Positions 903 to 34,706 of a stretch of 64,000 nucleotides of DNA are shown here, one piece after another. This DNA is from Candidatus Vogelbacteria bacterium RIFOXYD1_FULL_44_32 (lineage in GTDB: Bacteria > Patescibacteriota > Minisyncoccia > Phycocordibacterales > XYD1-FULL-46-19): positions 53,532 through 117,531 of the forward strand of contig MHTJ01000002.1 of assembly GCA_001823065.1 (NCBI GenBank). The letters run 5' to 3'. Under the pieces are notes generated by a model. It saw only the letters and a list, made by a program, of their open reading frames with translations. It was not told the origin of the DNA and searched no databases. Each line of letters starts with the position of its first letter. Position 1 is the stretch's first letter. The position numbers were made by a program, and so were the translations under genes.

Positions 903-2225
903 TTATTTTACCCCACTTTTATCGGTTTGTTTTGGAGCAATAGCTAATTTAAGAAATTCCTTAACATCAAAAACTCCTATTGTATTAAACATACATTCTT
1001 TCAGTCCTTCCATCGATACTCCATTCATCTTTGCGTTTACCAACTCAAAGATATCAACAGCTGTCACAAGACAGATATCACAACTTCTAGCTTTTTTTAT
1101 TAGATTATCCTCAAAAGCCTTTGGTCTCTCGTTTGGTTTAGCGTCCTTATAGTGATTAATAATAAATATACCTTGGGTTAAATACGGCTCGGATGTTGGG
1201 GTATCTGGGATTCTTGCGATTAATTGATTTAAATCAGTTCCATTTAGTCCTTCCTTATTTTTTCCTCTAATTTCGATGATGATTCTAGATTTGCCTTCCT
1301 GATAATATCTGTCCTCCTCATTATCAACATCTGGAGACAATAAATTAATACCCAGTAATTTAAAGCAGTCAGATAATGACACTTCCAATGGTTTACCTTT
1401 TAGATACAGTACTTTTTTATACTCACAAATTAATGATAACTCAGATATTAGGAGTCCTTTTTCGACTTCTTTCCTATCTATTTCTACTTGTATATCCAAT
1501 ATCCCTTGCTTTTTACTGGCCTCACCAGGAAGTACAATTTCTTCAATCCATACAGGAGCTGGTTCTTTCTCAACCGAAAGTTCTGTTATTAACAATTCTA
1601 TACTATCTTCTGTATTGCCTAGCACAGGCAAGAAAAAAATTGGGCTGCCTTTAATCTTAGTACTTCTAGTACTCGTATCGCCCACGCTCCAAAGAAATCT
1701 AAATGCAATGGCTTTATTTATTTTATTTACAGCAAGCGCTTTGAAGTTAGGCTCAAACACGAGCGAACTATTTGGTGGGAAATGGTAGCAGTTGTTTATG
1801 CAATCTTTGTATAATCTATCCCACTTTTTAATTCTAGTCAGGAATTTTAAGTAATTTTCAGTCTTTGAGTGGTCAACTATGTTGCCTGGTAATTCTTCAA
1901 ACATCGGAATAATTGGGCACCAGCTATAGTTGAACGTGGTCTTACCCTGTGGTGACGAGTAAATAACTGGGCTCGCACAAAAAGAAAAAACTTGAAGTTT
2001 CCTTTTCTCTTGAGCCTCAATAATCATCTTCCTAATATCATCAAAGTAATTTGGATTTTCTATGGATATCTTTTCCATCAAGTCCCGTGTAAGAGAAGCG
2101 GTATCACATATGACGACATCAAAATCAGGCACATAAACAAAATCCCCCCAAGATACAGCTTTGTCCGCCCTGGGGTGATTTTCTGACCCGATAACTAAAA
2201 TACTTGCCCTGGAGTCCTCATTCAT
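903..2225 (-). CDS. hypothetical protein, 440 aa, no recognisable family; possible C-terminal PD-(D/E)xK-like nuclease motif
   Basis: Long clean ORF. C-terminal D..EGKSRIIIEIRG...LNQL segment is weakly reminiscent of a restriction-endonuclease fold. Preceded by a phased repeat array. Confidence 0.6.
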   Translation of the reverse strand: MNEDSRASILVIGSENHPRADKAVSWGDFVYVPDFDVVICDTASLTRDLMEKISIENPNYFDDIRKMIIEAQEKRKLQVFSFCASPVIYSSPQGKTTFNYSWCPIIPMFEELPGNIVDHSKTENYLKFLTRIKKWDRLYKDCINNCYHFPPNSSLVFEPNFKALAVNKINKAIAFRFLWSVGDTSTRSTKIKGSPIFFLPVLGNTEDSIELLITELSVEKEPAPVWIEEIVLPGEASKKQGILDIQVEIDRKEVEKGLLISELSLICEYKKVLYLKGKPLEVSLSDCFKLLGINLLSPDVDNEEDRYYQEGKSRIIIEIRGKNKEGLNGTDLNQLIARIPDTPTSEPYLTQGIFIINHYKDAKPNERPKAFEDNLIKKARSCDICLVTAVDIFELVNAKMNGVSMEGLKECMFNTIGVFDVKEFLKLAIAPKQTDKSGVK

Positions 2226-2414
2226 TTGATACCATAGTAATACTTGAATCTACAAAAGTACAAGGTGCCGAGTTATTAGGACAGCTGATACTAATTTTTT
2301 CTAAAATCTACTATCTTTCAACAGTAAATAACAGAGATTAACAACATTCAACACTGTTAGACTGGCTATCTAATACAAAATAGGTATGCAAGTTATATAA
2401 GTTGTATCACCCCA

Positions 2415-2462
2415 AATTACCTGTAATTACCTGTTTTTACCTGCCCACGACACGATACCTGC
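2415..2462. repeat. TTACCTG heptamer repeated 4x at ~10-bp phase
   Basis: Copies at 2418-2424, 2428-2434, 2438-2444 and 2456-2462 (aTACCTG). Confidence 0.6.
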
Positions 2463-2510
2463 AGAAATAATTTTTTATATTATGAAAGTTAAGAAAGTTA
2501 CATTCCTTAT

Positions 2511-2620
2511 TTTTAACTAATTTTAACCAGGATTAACCATTTTTAACCGCAATTGACCGAAACTAACCGACTTTTACTAATACTTACCAATTTCTACTAA
2601 CATCTACTAACATCCACCAC
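2511..2620. repeat. Eleven tandem degenerate 10-bp repeats (ttTTAACcaa / cTACTAA core), iteron-like
   Basis: ttttaactaa ttttaaccag gattaaccat ttttaaccgc aattgaccga aactaaccga cttttactaa tacttaccaa tttctactaa catctactaa catccaccac, with strict 10-bp periodicity. Confidence 0.7.
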
Positions 2621-2634
2621 TACTTCTGTACTTT

Positions 2635-2835
2635 TTATGATTTTAGCTGTTTCTCCTCGGTCAGACTCCAAATAAGCGCGACCACCCAACCGATGAATGT
2701 CCAACCAAGAAAAAGATTGAGCGCAAAAATAGCCCAAGCGTTATCTTTTTTATCGTAAAATGCCCCGATTGAGGGAGCAAAATATAGCCCAATGACCGCT
2801 ATCGCTATTAGTAAGGCAATAAATGTAGATTCCAT
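2635..2835 (-). CDS. phage T4 Imm-like superinfection immunity protein (Imm_superinfect family), small membrane protein
   Basis: 66 aa; PSIGAF...NLFLGWTFIGWVVALIWSL matches the Imm_superinfect signature (NxFLGWTGxGWxxALIWA). Confidence 0.55.
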   Translation of the reverse strand: MESTFIALLIAIAVIGLYFAPSIGAFYDKKDNAWAIFALNLFLGWTFIGWVVALIWSLTEEKQLKS

Positions 2836-3731: not shown

Positions 3732-3914
3732 AGCTGGAAATTAAGAACCAAAAAGCCCACCACAAGTGAGGCCAAATGGCCCTACCTAAGTTTCCCTAGG
3801 TAACGTTCCAGACGCCCTTGTGATGGGGTTTTTGTCTGGAACGCTTTGCGACCATACCGTAGAAAAGTAAATTTCTACGGGTTAGGTCTTAATAAATTGT
3901 TATCCTGATATTAA

Positions 3915-3968: not shown

Positions 3969-4475
3969 TTATTTTTCTTTTTGGGATTTTTGATTGTTCT
4001 CAGGGAATAAGTGTTTTACAGCAATCAATAACATTATAGTTATCTGCGATATTGTTGCCGTTACTAGCAAACGGAAACTCCAGTCCTCAAGATAAAAGAA
4101 CTTCCCAGGCCTGTTTGTATCTACTCCTTGTAAAAAAGCGAGGATAAAAATGACGGTCGTTTCTATTCCTAAAAAAATAAACAGCCGATTCAGTGTGACC
4201 TTTTTTAAAGAAATATCCTGCTCTAAAGCATCATTGGCTAAGGATTTTGCCCTTTGTTCCTCCTTGTCTTCAATTTTTTCCGCTATCCTCTTTCTGGTTA
4301 CAAATGGGGTATTATATGACTGATTAAATATCCCTGGACGGCTGCCCTTCTGATGATTTAGGAGCCTCTTTTTTATTTCCTCCACCTCATTTTGTGCATC
4401 AGAGTATATCCTACTTGTTATACCTGGCTCTGAGTCGGGAACCACCTTTTTATCAGGAGGTGTCATACTAGTCAT
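3969..4475 (-). CDS. hypothetical membrane protein (soluble N-terminus, 2 C-terminal TM helices), co-operonic with ImmA
   Basis: Overlaps the ImmA gene by 8 bp; TM helices FIFLGIETTVIFILAFL and LLVTATISQITIMLLIAV. Confidence 0.55.
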   Translation of the reverse strand: MTSMTPPDKKVVPDSEPGITSRIYSDAQNEVEEIKKRLLNHQKGSRPGIFNQSYNTPFVTRKRIAEKIEDKEEQRAKSLANDALEQDISLKKVTLNRLFIFLGIETTVIFILAFLQGVDTNRPGKFFYLEDWSFRLLVTATISQITIMLLIAVKHLFPENNQKSQKEK

Positions 4476-5007
4476 TAGCTAAGCCAAGTTTCTCTAATCT
4501 AATTGCCATAGCAACAACGGAAACATTAAATATTTCTGCACATTCTTTAACATCTCCAACTTTACCCCAAGCGTCCCTGACCAAATCTTCTGGCATTATT
4601 AACGACGCCGCAAAATTATTAGCCTCAATTTCTAGCTTTGTCCCTATGGCGTCATCTAAACGAAAAAGGGTTCTACCTCCATCCAAAGTGCCTTCTCCGT
4701 CTATCATTATTTCTTCACTCTTAATAAATTCGGAATGCAGAAAAAGGTGGCCCAACTCGTGAGCTACAGTAAAATACTGCCTGGTTTTAGGTTTACTGCG
4801 GTTTATATAGATAGAAAAGGAGTCATTGTCTTTGTTATAGCTTATTGCCCCAGATATTTTATCTTCCAAGAGATTAGTGTAAATAATCTCCAAATCCTTT
4901 CTCCCTCTTTCTATATTTTCAAATGGAAAGGGGGAGACATTATCAGGATTATATAATTCCCTTTTTTCGTTAGCTTTTTTTATCGCTAAATTTACGTCTG
5001 CTTCCAT
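4468..5007 (-). CDS. ImmA/IrrE family zinc metallopeptidase (DUF955)
   Basis: HEXXH motif in TVAHELGHLFLH; the length and surrounding residues fit the ImmA/IrrE family. Confidence 0.75.
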   Translation of the reverse strand: MEADVNLAIKKANEKRELYNPDNVSPFPFENIERGRKDLEIIYTNLLEDKISGAISYNKDNDSFSIYINRSKPKTRQYFTVAHELGHLFLHSEFIKSEEIMIDGEGTLDGGRTLFRLDDAIGTKLEIEANNFAASLIMPEDLVRDAWGKVGDVKECAEIFNVSVVAMAIRLEKLGLAND

Positions 5008-5313
5008 AGGTATATATTACCACTTTTTCTAAATAACCGTTCTATTTGGGGTCATCTAAAAAGCCCATTTCGGTAAAATTTGCCTAATTTACTGTCATTT
5101 GTCAAAGAAACCTTGAAACCAAGCTGCGGTATTGTGTAGCCTACGTTAAAATAGCATCCCCTTGGCCAATATCAAAAAAGCTTACTTTTAATTTAGACCC
5201 AGTGGTAGACCAAAAAACTAGAAGCCAAATCAGCAGTCCAATGCTGGCCAGTAAAAACAAAAAAGACCACCGCCAGCGCCAACTATCTTGCATCAAGTAA
5301 TTATACCAAAAAA

Positions 5314-7927: not shown

Positions 7928-9670
7928 TTATGCTTGCCTCAAGTCAACTACGCGCAAGCGCAACTCCGGCCGGTTTTTAAAGGTTGATTTTTCAATATTT
8001 GCGAGCATGTCCACCCGCCGGCCAGGGGCCAGATTTACCCCCGGCCAAATATGACCCGAATCATAAGATAAATCACAACCAGAATCACAAGCAAAAAAGG
8101 CAATGGCCGAGATTTTATTGTCTTCATTATCTTTAAAAACAATTTCCACGTGTCCGCCGGTTTTACCAAAAGCTTTAGCGGAAACAATGGCTAAATTTTC
8201 GAGCCAAAACACTGGCTTGGGAAAATCTAGCCCATACGGCCCAATTTTTTCAATCTCTTTTTGCATTGCCCAGCCAATATCAGCCAGGCTAATTTTCAGA
8301 TCCGCCTCCTCCTCTTCCACCACCACCGTTTTGGTCATTTTTTTGTAGGCCTCTAATAGTTTTTTCTCTAACTTCACCAAATTCTCGGCTGGCAAAGAAA
8401 AACCACCCGCAAAAGCGTGACCGCCAAAATCACGGAAAAATTTTGGTTTGCCCGCCAAAGTCATTAGTTCAACCACATTTACTTTGCCGTCTGACCGGCA
8501 TGAACCTTTTATTTCGCCATTACCATTTTTGGCCCAAACAAAAACTGTCCGCCCATACTTTTCACTAATCCGCGCCGCCGCTAGTCCCAGCACCCCCAAC
8601 CCCCAATCCTCGTTGCCGACAACCAGCACCGCCGGCAAATTCTTGGTTTGATAATGTTTTTCGACAGTATCTAAAATTTCCGTCACTTGGCTACGTCTTT
8701 CTTTATTGCGCCCCTCCAAATCACAAGCAATTTGACGCGCCTCCTCTTCTTTAGTGGTCATCAGTAAATTAAAAGCCTCCAAGGCATGCGACATCCGACC
8801 CGCCGAATTGATACGCGGGCCAATCATAAAACCAATATCCTCTTCATTTATATATTCTCGTTTCAATTTTAAAACCCGGAAAAGCTCGAGGAGCCCCAGT
8901 CGGTGAGTCATTCGCAACACCATCAGGCCAAACTTGGTCATCGTTTTATTTTCGCCCGTCATTGGTACCATATCCGCTACTGTCGCAATCGCCACTAGTT
9001 CTAAGAGCCACTTTTCCCAACCAATTGGTATTGTCTCCAAATTACCGCGTGCTATTAGCGCCTGCACCAACTTAAAAGCCACTCCCGTCCCCGCCAAATG
9101 TTTGTAGGGATAGGCACAATCCGTCCGCTTGGGGTCAATCACCGCCACTGCTTTGGGTAATTTGGCTGGGGGCAAGTGGTGGTCGGTTACTACCACGTCT
9201 ATCCCCAACTCATTGGCTCGCTTTACTTCAACCAAATTAGAAATTCCACAATCAACTGTAATAATTAGTTGTACGCCATCAGCTTTAAATTTTTCTACCG
9301 CTACTACCGATAAGCCGTATTGTTCATTATGGCGATGGGGAATGTAAACACTAAAATTTTCGTAATTAATTTTACGAAAAAACTCGGCCAGCACCGCCGA
9401 AGCCGGCACCCCATCGGCATCATAATCGCCAAAGATTAAAATCTTTTCCTCATTTTCAATTGCCTGCAATATTCTAGCCACCCCTTTTTCCATATCCTTC
9501 AGTAAAAATGGATCGTGTAAATGTCTCACATATTCCGGCAAAAAAATCTCTTCGATTTCTTCTCTGGTTTTCACCCCACGATTTTTTAAAATAGCCGTGG
9601 CCACATCTTTTAGTCCAGCAAAAACATCACCTTTAGTTTTGCTAACCTTTATTTTCCACGCTTTTTGCAT
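7928..9670 (-). CDS. recJ: single-stranded-DNA-specific exonuclease RecJ
   Basis: DHH and DHHA1 motifs (ILIFGDYDADGV, VVVTDHH); 580 aa. Confidence 0.9.
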   Translation of the reverse strand: MQKAWKIKVSKTKGDVFAGLKDVATAILKNRGVKTREEIEEIFLPEYVRHLHDPFLLKDMEKGVARILQAIENEEKILIFGDYDADGVPASAVLAEFFRKINYENFSVYIPHRHNEQYGLSVVAVEKFKADGVQLIITVDCGISNLVEVKRANELGIDVVVTDHHLPPAKLPKAVAVIDPKRTDCAYPYKHLAGTGVAFKLVQALIARGNLETIPIGWEKWLLELVAIATVADMVPMTGENKTMTKFGLMVLRMTHRLGLLELFRVLKLKREYINEEDIGFMIGPRINSAGRMSHALEAFNLLMTTKEEEARQIACDLEGRNKERRSQVTEILDTVEKHYQTKNLPAVLVVGNEDWGLGVLGLAAARISEKYGRTVFVWAKNGNGEIKGSCRSDGKVNVVELMTLAGKPKFFRDFGGHAFAGGFSLPAENLVKLEKKLLEAYKKMTKTVVVEEEEADLKISLADIGWAMQKEIEKIGPYGLDFPKPVFWLENLAIVSAKAFGKTGGHVEIVFKDNEDNKISAIAFFACDSGCDLSYDSGHIWPGVNLAPGRRVDMLANIEKSTFKNRPELRLRVVDLRQA

Positions 9671-34122: not shown

Positions 34123-34506
34123 TCAAGAAATATCCTCGATGTATTCAATTTTAAGTAATTTTTGATTTTTATCCAGATATACTGCCACCGCATCTAATTG
34201 CCAATCCAGCTCTTCATATTGTTCATTGTTTAGTAAAAATGTCTCGATTGTCCGGTACAACCGCTTTAGCTTCCACGGGTGAATATTATCCTCTGGTTCA
34301 TAAGTGTCCCCTGTTTCATGTAAAACACCTGCCCTAGTAACTGTTTTTACCTCAACAAAGTGTACCACCTCCCCTTTTTGGGTAATAATATCAATTTCAC
34401 CCCATGGTTTACGATAATTGCGAGCAATAATAGCAAAACCCTTGGTTTTTAGGTGCTTTACCGCTAGATCCTCCCCTATTTGACCAACCTTATGTTTGAG
34501 TAACAT
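34123..34506 (-). CDS. YraN/UPF0102 family PD-(D/E)xK endonuclease
   Basis: GEIDIITQKGEVVHFVEVKT signature; 127 aa. Confidence 0.8.
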   Translation of the reverse strand: MLLKHKVGQIGEDLAVKHLKTKGFAIIARNYRKPWGEIDIITQKGEVVHFVEVKTVTRAGVLHETGDTYEPEDNIHPWKLKRLYRTIETFLLNNEQYEELDWQLDAVAVYLDKNQKLLKIEYIEDIS

Positions 34507-34577
34507 TTTATTAAATTACAATAGTTCGAAGGCCAAATATAACAAAATTCTAGCAAATTTGACTCAAACACCCAAAA

Positions 34578-34706
34578 TTGTTTCCCGTGAAATGCTTTTT
34601 ATGTTTTTTAAGTCTAAAACCCTATAATTACCTCTCCTTTCATAACTACCCATTTCACGGGAAACACCCCCTACCTAACGTTACTTAAGTAACGTTAGGT
34701 AGGGGG
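34578..34706. promoter_or_regulatory. structured non-coding element: 15-bp inverted repeat gtttcccgtgaaat (34580-34594 and 34651-34665 inverted; third direct copy at 34933-34946) immediately followed by a 40-bp perfect palindrome (34667-34706)
   Basis: ccccctacctaacgttac ttaa gtaacgttaggtaggggg, 18-bp arms with no T-tract after; gccatttatt direct repeats at 34778-34830. Confidence 0.5.

Follow-up and report, generated by a model that had tools for sequence, protein, structure and literature searches.

A phased array of eleven 10-bp direct repeats in the long non-coding gap of an integrated serine-recombinase element from Patescibacteria

Introduction

In mobile DNA, origins, centromeres and switch operators usually show themselves as arrays of short, phased repeats. 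The parC centromere of plasmid R1 is made of two sets of five 11-bp repeats and that of pSK41 of 10-bp half-repeats. The Cox and Apl regulators of P2 and 186 bind direct boxes lying about 10.5 bp apart in a filament-like, cooperative manner, and regulators of the OmpR/PhoB family occupy tandem arrays that are known up to about nine units. The present work deals with an array of this general kind, formed by eleven 10-bp units at positions 2511..2620 of a stretch of 64,000 nucleotides from Candidatus Vogelbacteria bacterium RIFOXYD1_FULL_44_32 (Patescibacteriota; contig MHTJ01000002.1, positions 53,532 to 117,531 of the forward strand). This whole stretch is referred to as the window, and positions are those of the window unless another locus is named. 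The array lies within an integrated large serine recombinase (LSR) element of about 10.9 kb, which splits a gene for a ComEC-type metallo-beta-lactamase (MBL) protein.

Since phased arrays are usual in mobile DNA, the array itself is no surprise. Its interest would lie in what it marks, namely the control region of an LSR family that interrupts competence-type genes of the candidate phyla radiation (CPR) and carries defence-like cargo together with LOOT RNA; the element family and its link to this RNA are arguably more novel than the array. Should the array prove to be an origin, or a switch that can be transferred, genetic tools could be developed from it for this lineage, for which, to our knowledge, very few are available.

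The repeat array and its gap

The eleven units are arranged head-to-tail and in one orientation, without a single insertion or deletion, as had been noticed in a preliminary description of the sequence, whose coordinates proved right. No strand is assigned to the array: its core is T(T/C)(A/T)AC(C/T)(A/G) on the plus strand and YRGTWAR on the minus, gene-coding strand. Units 1 to 6 read TTTTAACTAA, TTTTAACCAG, GATTAACCAT, TTTTAACCGC, AATTGACCGA and AACTAACCGA, and units 7 to 11 CTTTTACTAA, TACTTACCAA, TTTCTACTAA, CATCTACTAA and CATCCACCAC, followed by a degenerate twelfth unit at 2621-2630. The register is strictly 10.0 bp over the 110 bp, despite a divergence of about 30% between units. Within the unit, A6 and C7 are identical in all eleven copies, whereas only pyrimidines (C or T) occur at position 8 and only purines (A or G) at position 9, so that these two vary by transitions alone; positions 3 and 4 are mainly T, and positions 1, 2, 5 and 10 are close to random.

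The periodicity is genuine and has no equal in the 64 kb. The information content of the array amounts to 9.98 bits in total, compared with 2.37 +/- 0.74 bits for random 110-bp windows, and the lag-10 self-match reaches 0.61-0.645 in 120-bp windows (z of about 7-8), the highest value of all lags from 5 to 15 across the entire 64 kb, lags 20 and 30 being likewise high at the array. A degenerate three-unit pattern is matched seven times, every time within the array, against 0.07 expected, and a four-unit pattern twice against 0.00 expected. Tandem Repeats Finder also recovers the array, split into three sub-arrays of period 10. The composition of the plus strand is biased, with 29 C and only 6 G, and the first four units contain phased tracts of four to five T.

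The array is contained in a gap of 409 bp, the sole long non-coding stretch separating the two same-strand gene blocks of the element, for which reason a promoter for the downstream block is to be expected in it. The gap holds a second set of repeats, the TTACCTG heptamers (run 2417..2461, strand not assigned; GCAGGTAAAAACAGGTAATTACAGGTAATT on the coding strand). Four phased copies had been described, of which three are exact and spaced by 10 bp (2417, 2427 and 2437), whereas the fourth is the degenerate ATACCTG at 2455-2461 and, lying 18 bp past the third, is out of the 10-11-bp phase. The GAAAGTTA doublet also mentioned in that description is present at 2484-2491 and 2493-2500 (strand not assigned), with 9 bp from start to start (period 9 and 2.3 copies in Tandem Repeats Finder). 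Between the two repeat sets runs an AT-rich stretch of 60 bp (2465..2524, strand not assigned; 86.7% AT, 99.9th percentile of the window), which overlaps the first array unit and is the most AT-rich and least stable part of the locus, with a 50-bp nearest-neighbour stability at the 99.8th percentile of the 64 kb. Towards the gene for a protein of 440 amino acids (aa) downstream, a candidate promoter/operator zone of this gene can be delimited at 2294..2359 on the minus strand on the basis of consensus matches only: a sigma-70-like match (TTGAAA, 16 nt, AAAAAT) at 2321..2294 on the minus strand and an imperfect palindrome, TAACAGAGATTAA / TTCAACACTGTTA, at 2329-2359, neither of them more frequent than in shuffled sequences.

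No further occurrence of the array or heptamer motifs was found in the window or in the remaining element, and blastn of the gap against phage and plasmid collections gave no match.

Proposed function of the array

The array probably serves to dock a DNA-binding protein, since its units share one orientation and recur once per helical turn, have a conserved core of 4-6 bp with free spacers and keep an unbroken register. It is best read as belonging to the cis-acting control region of the element, and not as an appendage of the 440-aa gene. The function that we favour, although tentatively and at well below even confidence, is that of an operator-type cis-acting site, where a protein bound cooperatively to a single helical face would regulate the promoter region serving the block of genes downstream. 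With one unit per helical turn and 4-6 of 10 positions constrained, the units would be head-to-tail sites for a small oligomerising DNA-binding protein, encoded either by the element or by the host, and this protein would cover one side of the helix over about 110 bp. Jointly with the three or four TTACCTG/CAGGTAA sites found 70-200 bp further on, the array would then control a promoter region feeding the long string of same-strand genes that begins with the 440-aa nuclease gene and ends with that of the recombinase. Protein binding, cooperativity and a role in transcription are all inferred here.

Three considerations have led to this preference: the promoter expected in the gap, the presence in the element of an ImmA-type switch protease, and the fact that the sole motif shared with a relative abuts a promoter-like site there. 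Proteases of the ImmA/IrrE (capP-like) type are typical of repressor-controlled switches. As for the shared motif, three relatives of the recombinase clade with enough flanking sequence (loci L222, L221 and L224) and the more distant L228/L229 were compared. The 680-bp, repeat-rich gap of L222 bears three AACAGGTAAAAACAGGAAAA modules, that is, TGCTAACAGGTAAAAACAGGAAAA twice and a degenerate third copy, CAGCAGGGTAAAAACAGGATTCC, directly upstream of a TTGAAA-17-TATAAG promoter-like site, and additionally AAAACAATAG repeats. The 14-mer CAGGTAAAAACAGG is common to the heptamer block of the array gap (coding strand) and the L222 gap, where it is found twice, and has the same orientation with respect to the recombinase gene in both. 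A match of this length was reached by 4 of 500 shuffles when gap was compared with gap, but by 44 of 200, which is not significant, when the whole L222 locus was searched; the link between both gaps is therefore suggestive rather than proven.

Besides this last value, several observations weigh against an operator. The array lies 190-300 bp upstream of the sole sigma-70-like match, far for an operator, and the match itself is at chance level. No DNA-binding regulator was recognised among the open reading frames (ORFs) of the element with Pfam, NCBIfam, PADLOC or PHROGs, the only candidate being a weak helix-turn-helix-like C-terminus, seen by eye, in a 247-aa protein encoded beside the recombinase gene. 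Moreover, comparison of the array gap with the related elements detected no similarity, three assemblies have the array in identical form, showing no strain variation, and plain simple repeats of 10 bp in tandem, with TTAAC or TTACCTG-like cores, are frequent in viral contigs.

By analogy, the array behaves most like the tandem arrays of the parC, Cox/Apl-box and OmpR/PhoB types, and the anatomy of the gap resembles that of short-iteron origins such as those of SaPIs. With the Cox/Apl systems it shares short boxes of the same orientation, the spacing of one turn and the location in the control region of an integrating element; in those systems, however, the integrases are of the tyrosine type and the small winged-helix protein has been identified, whereas here the recombinase is an LSR and no such protein is found. 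The likeness to OmpR/PhoB half-sites, such as the TT(A/T/C)ACA of B. subtilis PhoP or the units of Streptomyces PhoP, would rest on a 5-bp core: each 10-11 bp would comprise a 5-6-bp core of the TTAAC/TTTAC/TTGAC kind plus AT-rich filler, but no response regulator with a DNA-binding domain is encoded near the array. The array cannot be assigned to any of these families, since for each of them the characteristic partner protein was looked for without success.

The close rival to the operator is a replication origin of the excised circle, in which the 10-bp units and the heptamers would act as iterons for an initiator of unrecognised type and the AT-rich stretch as unwinding element; we regard it as possible but doubtful. 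The preliminary description had left the choice between origin and control region, and the anatomy is indeed compatible with an origin: two sets of direct repeats in helical phase flank a 60-bp, 87% AT stretch of low stability, as in the iteron origins of lambda (within gene O), theta plasmids and SaPIs. Furthermore, replication modules exist in the same recombinase clade, L224 having a true origin of the Rep_O type with 21-bp iterons inside the Phage_rep_O gene; L228/L229 have repeats following a zinc ribbon and DUF3631 helicase, and the L221 gap resembles two iteron pairs around an AT-rich spacer. However, sequence profiles recognised no Rep, primase, helicase or partition family among the ORFs of the element, the neighbours of the gap being a membrane protein and a nuclease, and the 247-aa protein has no similarity to Rep_O, to a 274-aa protein of L222 or to PDB sequences. 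The relatives with Rep genes keep their iterons in or next to them, beside the recombinase gene, whereas here about 5 kb lie between that gene and the array. Iterons, moreover, are usually longer and fewer (3-7 of 17-22 bp, against eleven of 10 bp), and a cluster of DnaA boxes, which had been considered for this region, is absent: the window holds 24 matches to TTATCCACA-like boxes with one mismatch at most, none of them within 2226-2640. In a bolder version, Patescibacteria would harbour a new kind of integrative element that replicates by itself, with the whole gap (eleven 10-bp units, CAGGTAA heptamers and the AT-rich core) as its origin; the element family would target competence genes (ComEC-type MBL, comM), and its initiator would be beyond current profiles. 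We consider this quite unlikely; were it true, the gap would amount to a minimal replicon in a lineage for which we know of no described plasmid. The closest architecture of all is that of a parC-type partition centromere, where a ribbon-helix-helix adaptor would segregate the excised circle by polymerising on some ten contiguous repeats of 10-11 bp. The number of contiguous same-orientation units (around ten in R1 ParR/parC and pSK41 parC) and their position upstream of an operon agree, and the arrangement would permit one-face coating by a small dimeric adaptor. Yet no ParM, ParA, TubZ or ParR-like gene was found among the element ORFs, the gene downstream encodes a FokI/Mrr-like nuclease, the R1 repeats are split five and five around the promoter while the array is unbroken, the context is a recombinase element and not a plasmid, and partition is not needed while the element is integrated; this is the least probable of the explanations.

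The repeats might also have no sequence-specific function and be a decayed slippage product (minisatellite) in AT-rich, horizontally acquired spacer DNA, which we hold to be unlikely, if less so than the new kind of origin. Adjacent units are identical at 6.6 of 10 positions and distant ones at about 5-5.5, in keeping with local duplication and subsequent drift; no related element has kept the array, similar repeats are common in viral contigs, as mentioned above, and the unevenness of substitutions over the ten unit positions gives a chi-square of about 12.8 (9 d.f., p of about 0.17, hand calculation), which alone is not significant. Slippage is not easily reconciled, however, with two invariant and two transition-only positions in eleven units next to four near-random ones, nor with an exact register over 110 bp free of indels. 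In addition, 409 bp is long for a gap in a streamlined CPR genome, and repeat-rich gaps are kept in related elements too. A role at the level of DNA shape or RNA, through intrinsic curvature of the upstream DNA, through an untranslated region that is structured or bound by protein, or through a Rho-loading tract, rich in C and poor in G, directed against antisense transcription, is very unlikely. It would draw on the phased T tracts of the first four units, on the base composition of the plus strand, whose RNA is predicted to be unstructured, and on predicted curvature, which is moderate and for which the best 120-bp window (starting at 2481) ranks 106 of 6388. Array windows nevertheless range from this rank down to 1082, that is, the top 2-11% in a wedge model, and the array proper is ordinary in the same model (top 5-11%), so the strongly bent DNA suggested beforehand finds little support. 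Folding of the array RNA against shuffles gave z-scores of 0.0 and +1.0 for the two strands, without structure signal, the gap had no Rfam match, and natural Rho-loading sites are not known to consist of conserved cores repeated in tandem. The strongest predicted curvature of the window (same wedge model) is found at 34471-34640, followed by 2681-2820, inside the Imm ORF beside the array.

The 440-aa gene beside the array

The gene downstream of the array (903..2225, minus strand, start at 2225) has no Pfam match, in agreement with the preliminary description. In its product, a GATase1/ThuA-like domain at the N-terminus is confidently predicted, together with a coiled coil and a PD-(D/E)xK nuclease domain of the FokI/Mrr type. 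The family to which the protein belongs is large and unannotated, with 1965 representatives at E <= 0.001 in an exhaustive profile search. Residues E304, D305, E318 and Q334 are invariant in the family and some members give weak Mrr_cat matches, which argues for nuclease-type cargo and not for a Rep, ParM or TubZ protein. On these predictions, the protein is a FokI/Mrr-like nuclease cargo of the element, neither Rep nor Par.

A functional tie between array and gene had been proposed, and the array was considered as partner of the 440-aa gene. This has been rejected: no periodic array was found upstream of the homologues at five of five loci (L001, L002 and L137-L139), and the protein is nuclease-like. 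The predicted protein further resembles a defence or restriction effector but is absent from PADLOC.

The integrated element

The window begins inside the element, and a longer contig from another assembly of the same strain (L003), reaching beyond the window start, was used to complete it: the element spans from window position 1 to about 5148 and continues over L003 7227-13016. The attL junction lies at 5128..5149 (minus strand), with a core TT at about 5148-5149 followed by the P' arm AACGTAGGCTACACAATACC, and attR outside the window at about L003 13015. The attP site reconstructed from both junctions is GGTATTGTGTAACCAACGTT-TT-AACGTAGGCTACACAATACC, whose arms are complementary at 18 of 20 positions and form an inverted repeat, and the predicted attB includes GATGCTATTTTCATTGAGGCA. 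At the left end, an MBL N-terminal stub of 51 aa (5141..5296, minus strand) ends in ...FFDIGQGDAILT*; the frame upstream of the Lactamase_B gene beyond the recombinase gene reads IEAPNGNQVLIDGG... When the stub is joined to L003 13045-13743, the product covers positions 4-195 of 196 of the Lactamase_B profile, compared with 43-195 for the right fragment alone. The target is thus split at the GQGDAIL codons of the MBL gene. Of the earlier proposal of an integrated or degraded mobile element, integration is well supported by the att junctions, the split MBL gene and relatives inserted at the same codons, whereas degradation is not, the element being apparently intact.

All genes of the element run in one direction. 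From the left end, the order is an ImmA/IrrE-type M78 metallopeptidase gene (capP-like; 4468..5007, minus strand; PF06114, E 3.9e-18; capP, E 2e-28), a 168-aa membrane protein, LOOT RNA, a 286-aa membrane protein, the Imm gene and the array, followed by the 440-aa gene, DUF350, Excalibur, several small membrane or secreted proteins, DUF6804, the 247-aa protein (L003 9823-10566, adjoining the recombinase gene) and the recombinase. The flanking genes of the gap had been described correctly, both being on the minus strand: the Imm gene encodes a 66-aa Imm_superinfect membrane protein (2635..2835; PF14373, E 5.7e-17), and its stop codon is 14 bp from the final array unit. A 12-13-bp direct repeat, TATTAGATTAACT, present in 2.2 copies at 2840-2866, takes up the short space that separates the Imm gene from the 286-aa gene.

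The LSR itself, of 587 aa, with Resolvase and Recombinase domains, is encoded at L003 11259-13022 (outside the window; strand not given). Its stop codon (L003 13010-13022, attR) sits just beyond the crossover core. In the excised attP form the recombinase ORF would extend for about 30 codons (QRF-NVGYTIPQLGFKV..., as compared with L003 2080-2180), and so the C-terminus of the recombinase, by inference from sequence only, would differ between the integrated and excised states.

The LOOT RNA (RF03000) is located at 3769..3888 on the minus strand and scores 71.8 bits, against a gathering threshold of 46.4. It is also found in the related recombinase element L224 (5753-5873) and next to the two close homologues of the 440-aa nuclease gene (L001 8371-8499 and L002 3013-3126), and so in four of the eleven loci scanned and in all three loci of close homologues of the 440-aa nuclease gene. 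This distribution suggests that LOOT is part of Patescibacteria mobile elements and may be linked to the nuclease family; we have found no description of its function.

Related elements

Recombinases 41-48% identical to that of the element, with a Lactamase_B gene directly after them, are present in other Patescibacteria (L220, L222, L223 and L224). The L222 element measures 8.3 kb and has the same MBL target codons: its stub ends at the identical GQGDAIL codons and its junction arms are homologous. The proteins common to both elements are the recombinase and the DUF6804 membrane protein only. L221 and L222, with recombinases 46-47% identical, have long gaps rich in repeats. In L221, where an M78 peptidase is found at the same end, the gap is of 235 bp and contains four AATCNGACAAATCNGACAC doublets, arranged as two pairs around an AT-rich spacer. 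The more distant L228/L229 splits a comM-like Mg-chelatase gene and encodes a DnaG-type zinc ribbon and the DUF3631 helicase, after which three direct TGTTAC(C/T) repeats and three inverted GTAACA copies are found. From these sequences, the elements of the clade commonly carry direct-repeat sets of their own in a long gap, some of them clearly replicate, and the family appears to target competence-type genes (ComEC-type MBL, comM).

In L224 the Phage_rep_O gene contains four or five near-perfect 21-bp iterons (GGACAAAAGTTCCAATCAAAT) at 9119-9265, followed by A-rich repeats of about 10 bp (ATAGAAAA). L224 thus holds a lambda-like origin in an integrative element of Patescibacteria.

Upstream of the recombinase gene, L003 (10851-11235) and L221 (9272-9640) also share a non-coding sequence of about 380 nt, with 68% identity and an nhmmer E-value of 1.2e-25. 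It is kept though the cargo differs, is GC-richer and hairpin-rich, and may represent either a structured RNA or a leader that regulates the recombinase gene.

A scan of a genome collection with the recombinase alignment was dominated by a generic serine-recombinase motif and gave no close relatives, two further alignments were too divergent to serve in searches for loci, a metagenome scan with a clade-specific fragment gave three short contigs only, and no relatives were found in viral contigs through either the recombinase or the 440-aa protein. No paper in the literature collection searched combines Patescibacteria, serine recombinase and comEC, and we found no description of the element family. 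A CAATAGAAA motif possibly shared across elements was rejected as not specific. Pattern scans of viral contigs (phased TTRACY, TTACCTG and CAGGTAAAAACAGGWAA) were uninformative, since they gave chiefly perfect simple repeats or unrelated phage sites.

Finally, a recurrent array of another kind was noticed in the IMG/VR contigs L011, L024, L036, L045, L056, L071, L091, L116 and L124, giant-virus bins included. It comprises from 4 to more than 15 copies per contig of TTTAACTT(C/T)G, with the flanks ...CAATATATACT(T/C)GA and GCAAATC(G/T)GTATATCTCTG, and by its sequence is clearly a conserved element, unrelated to the window.

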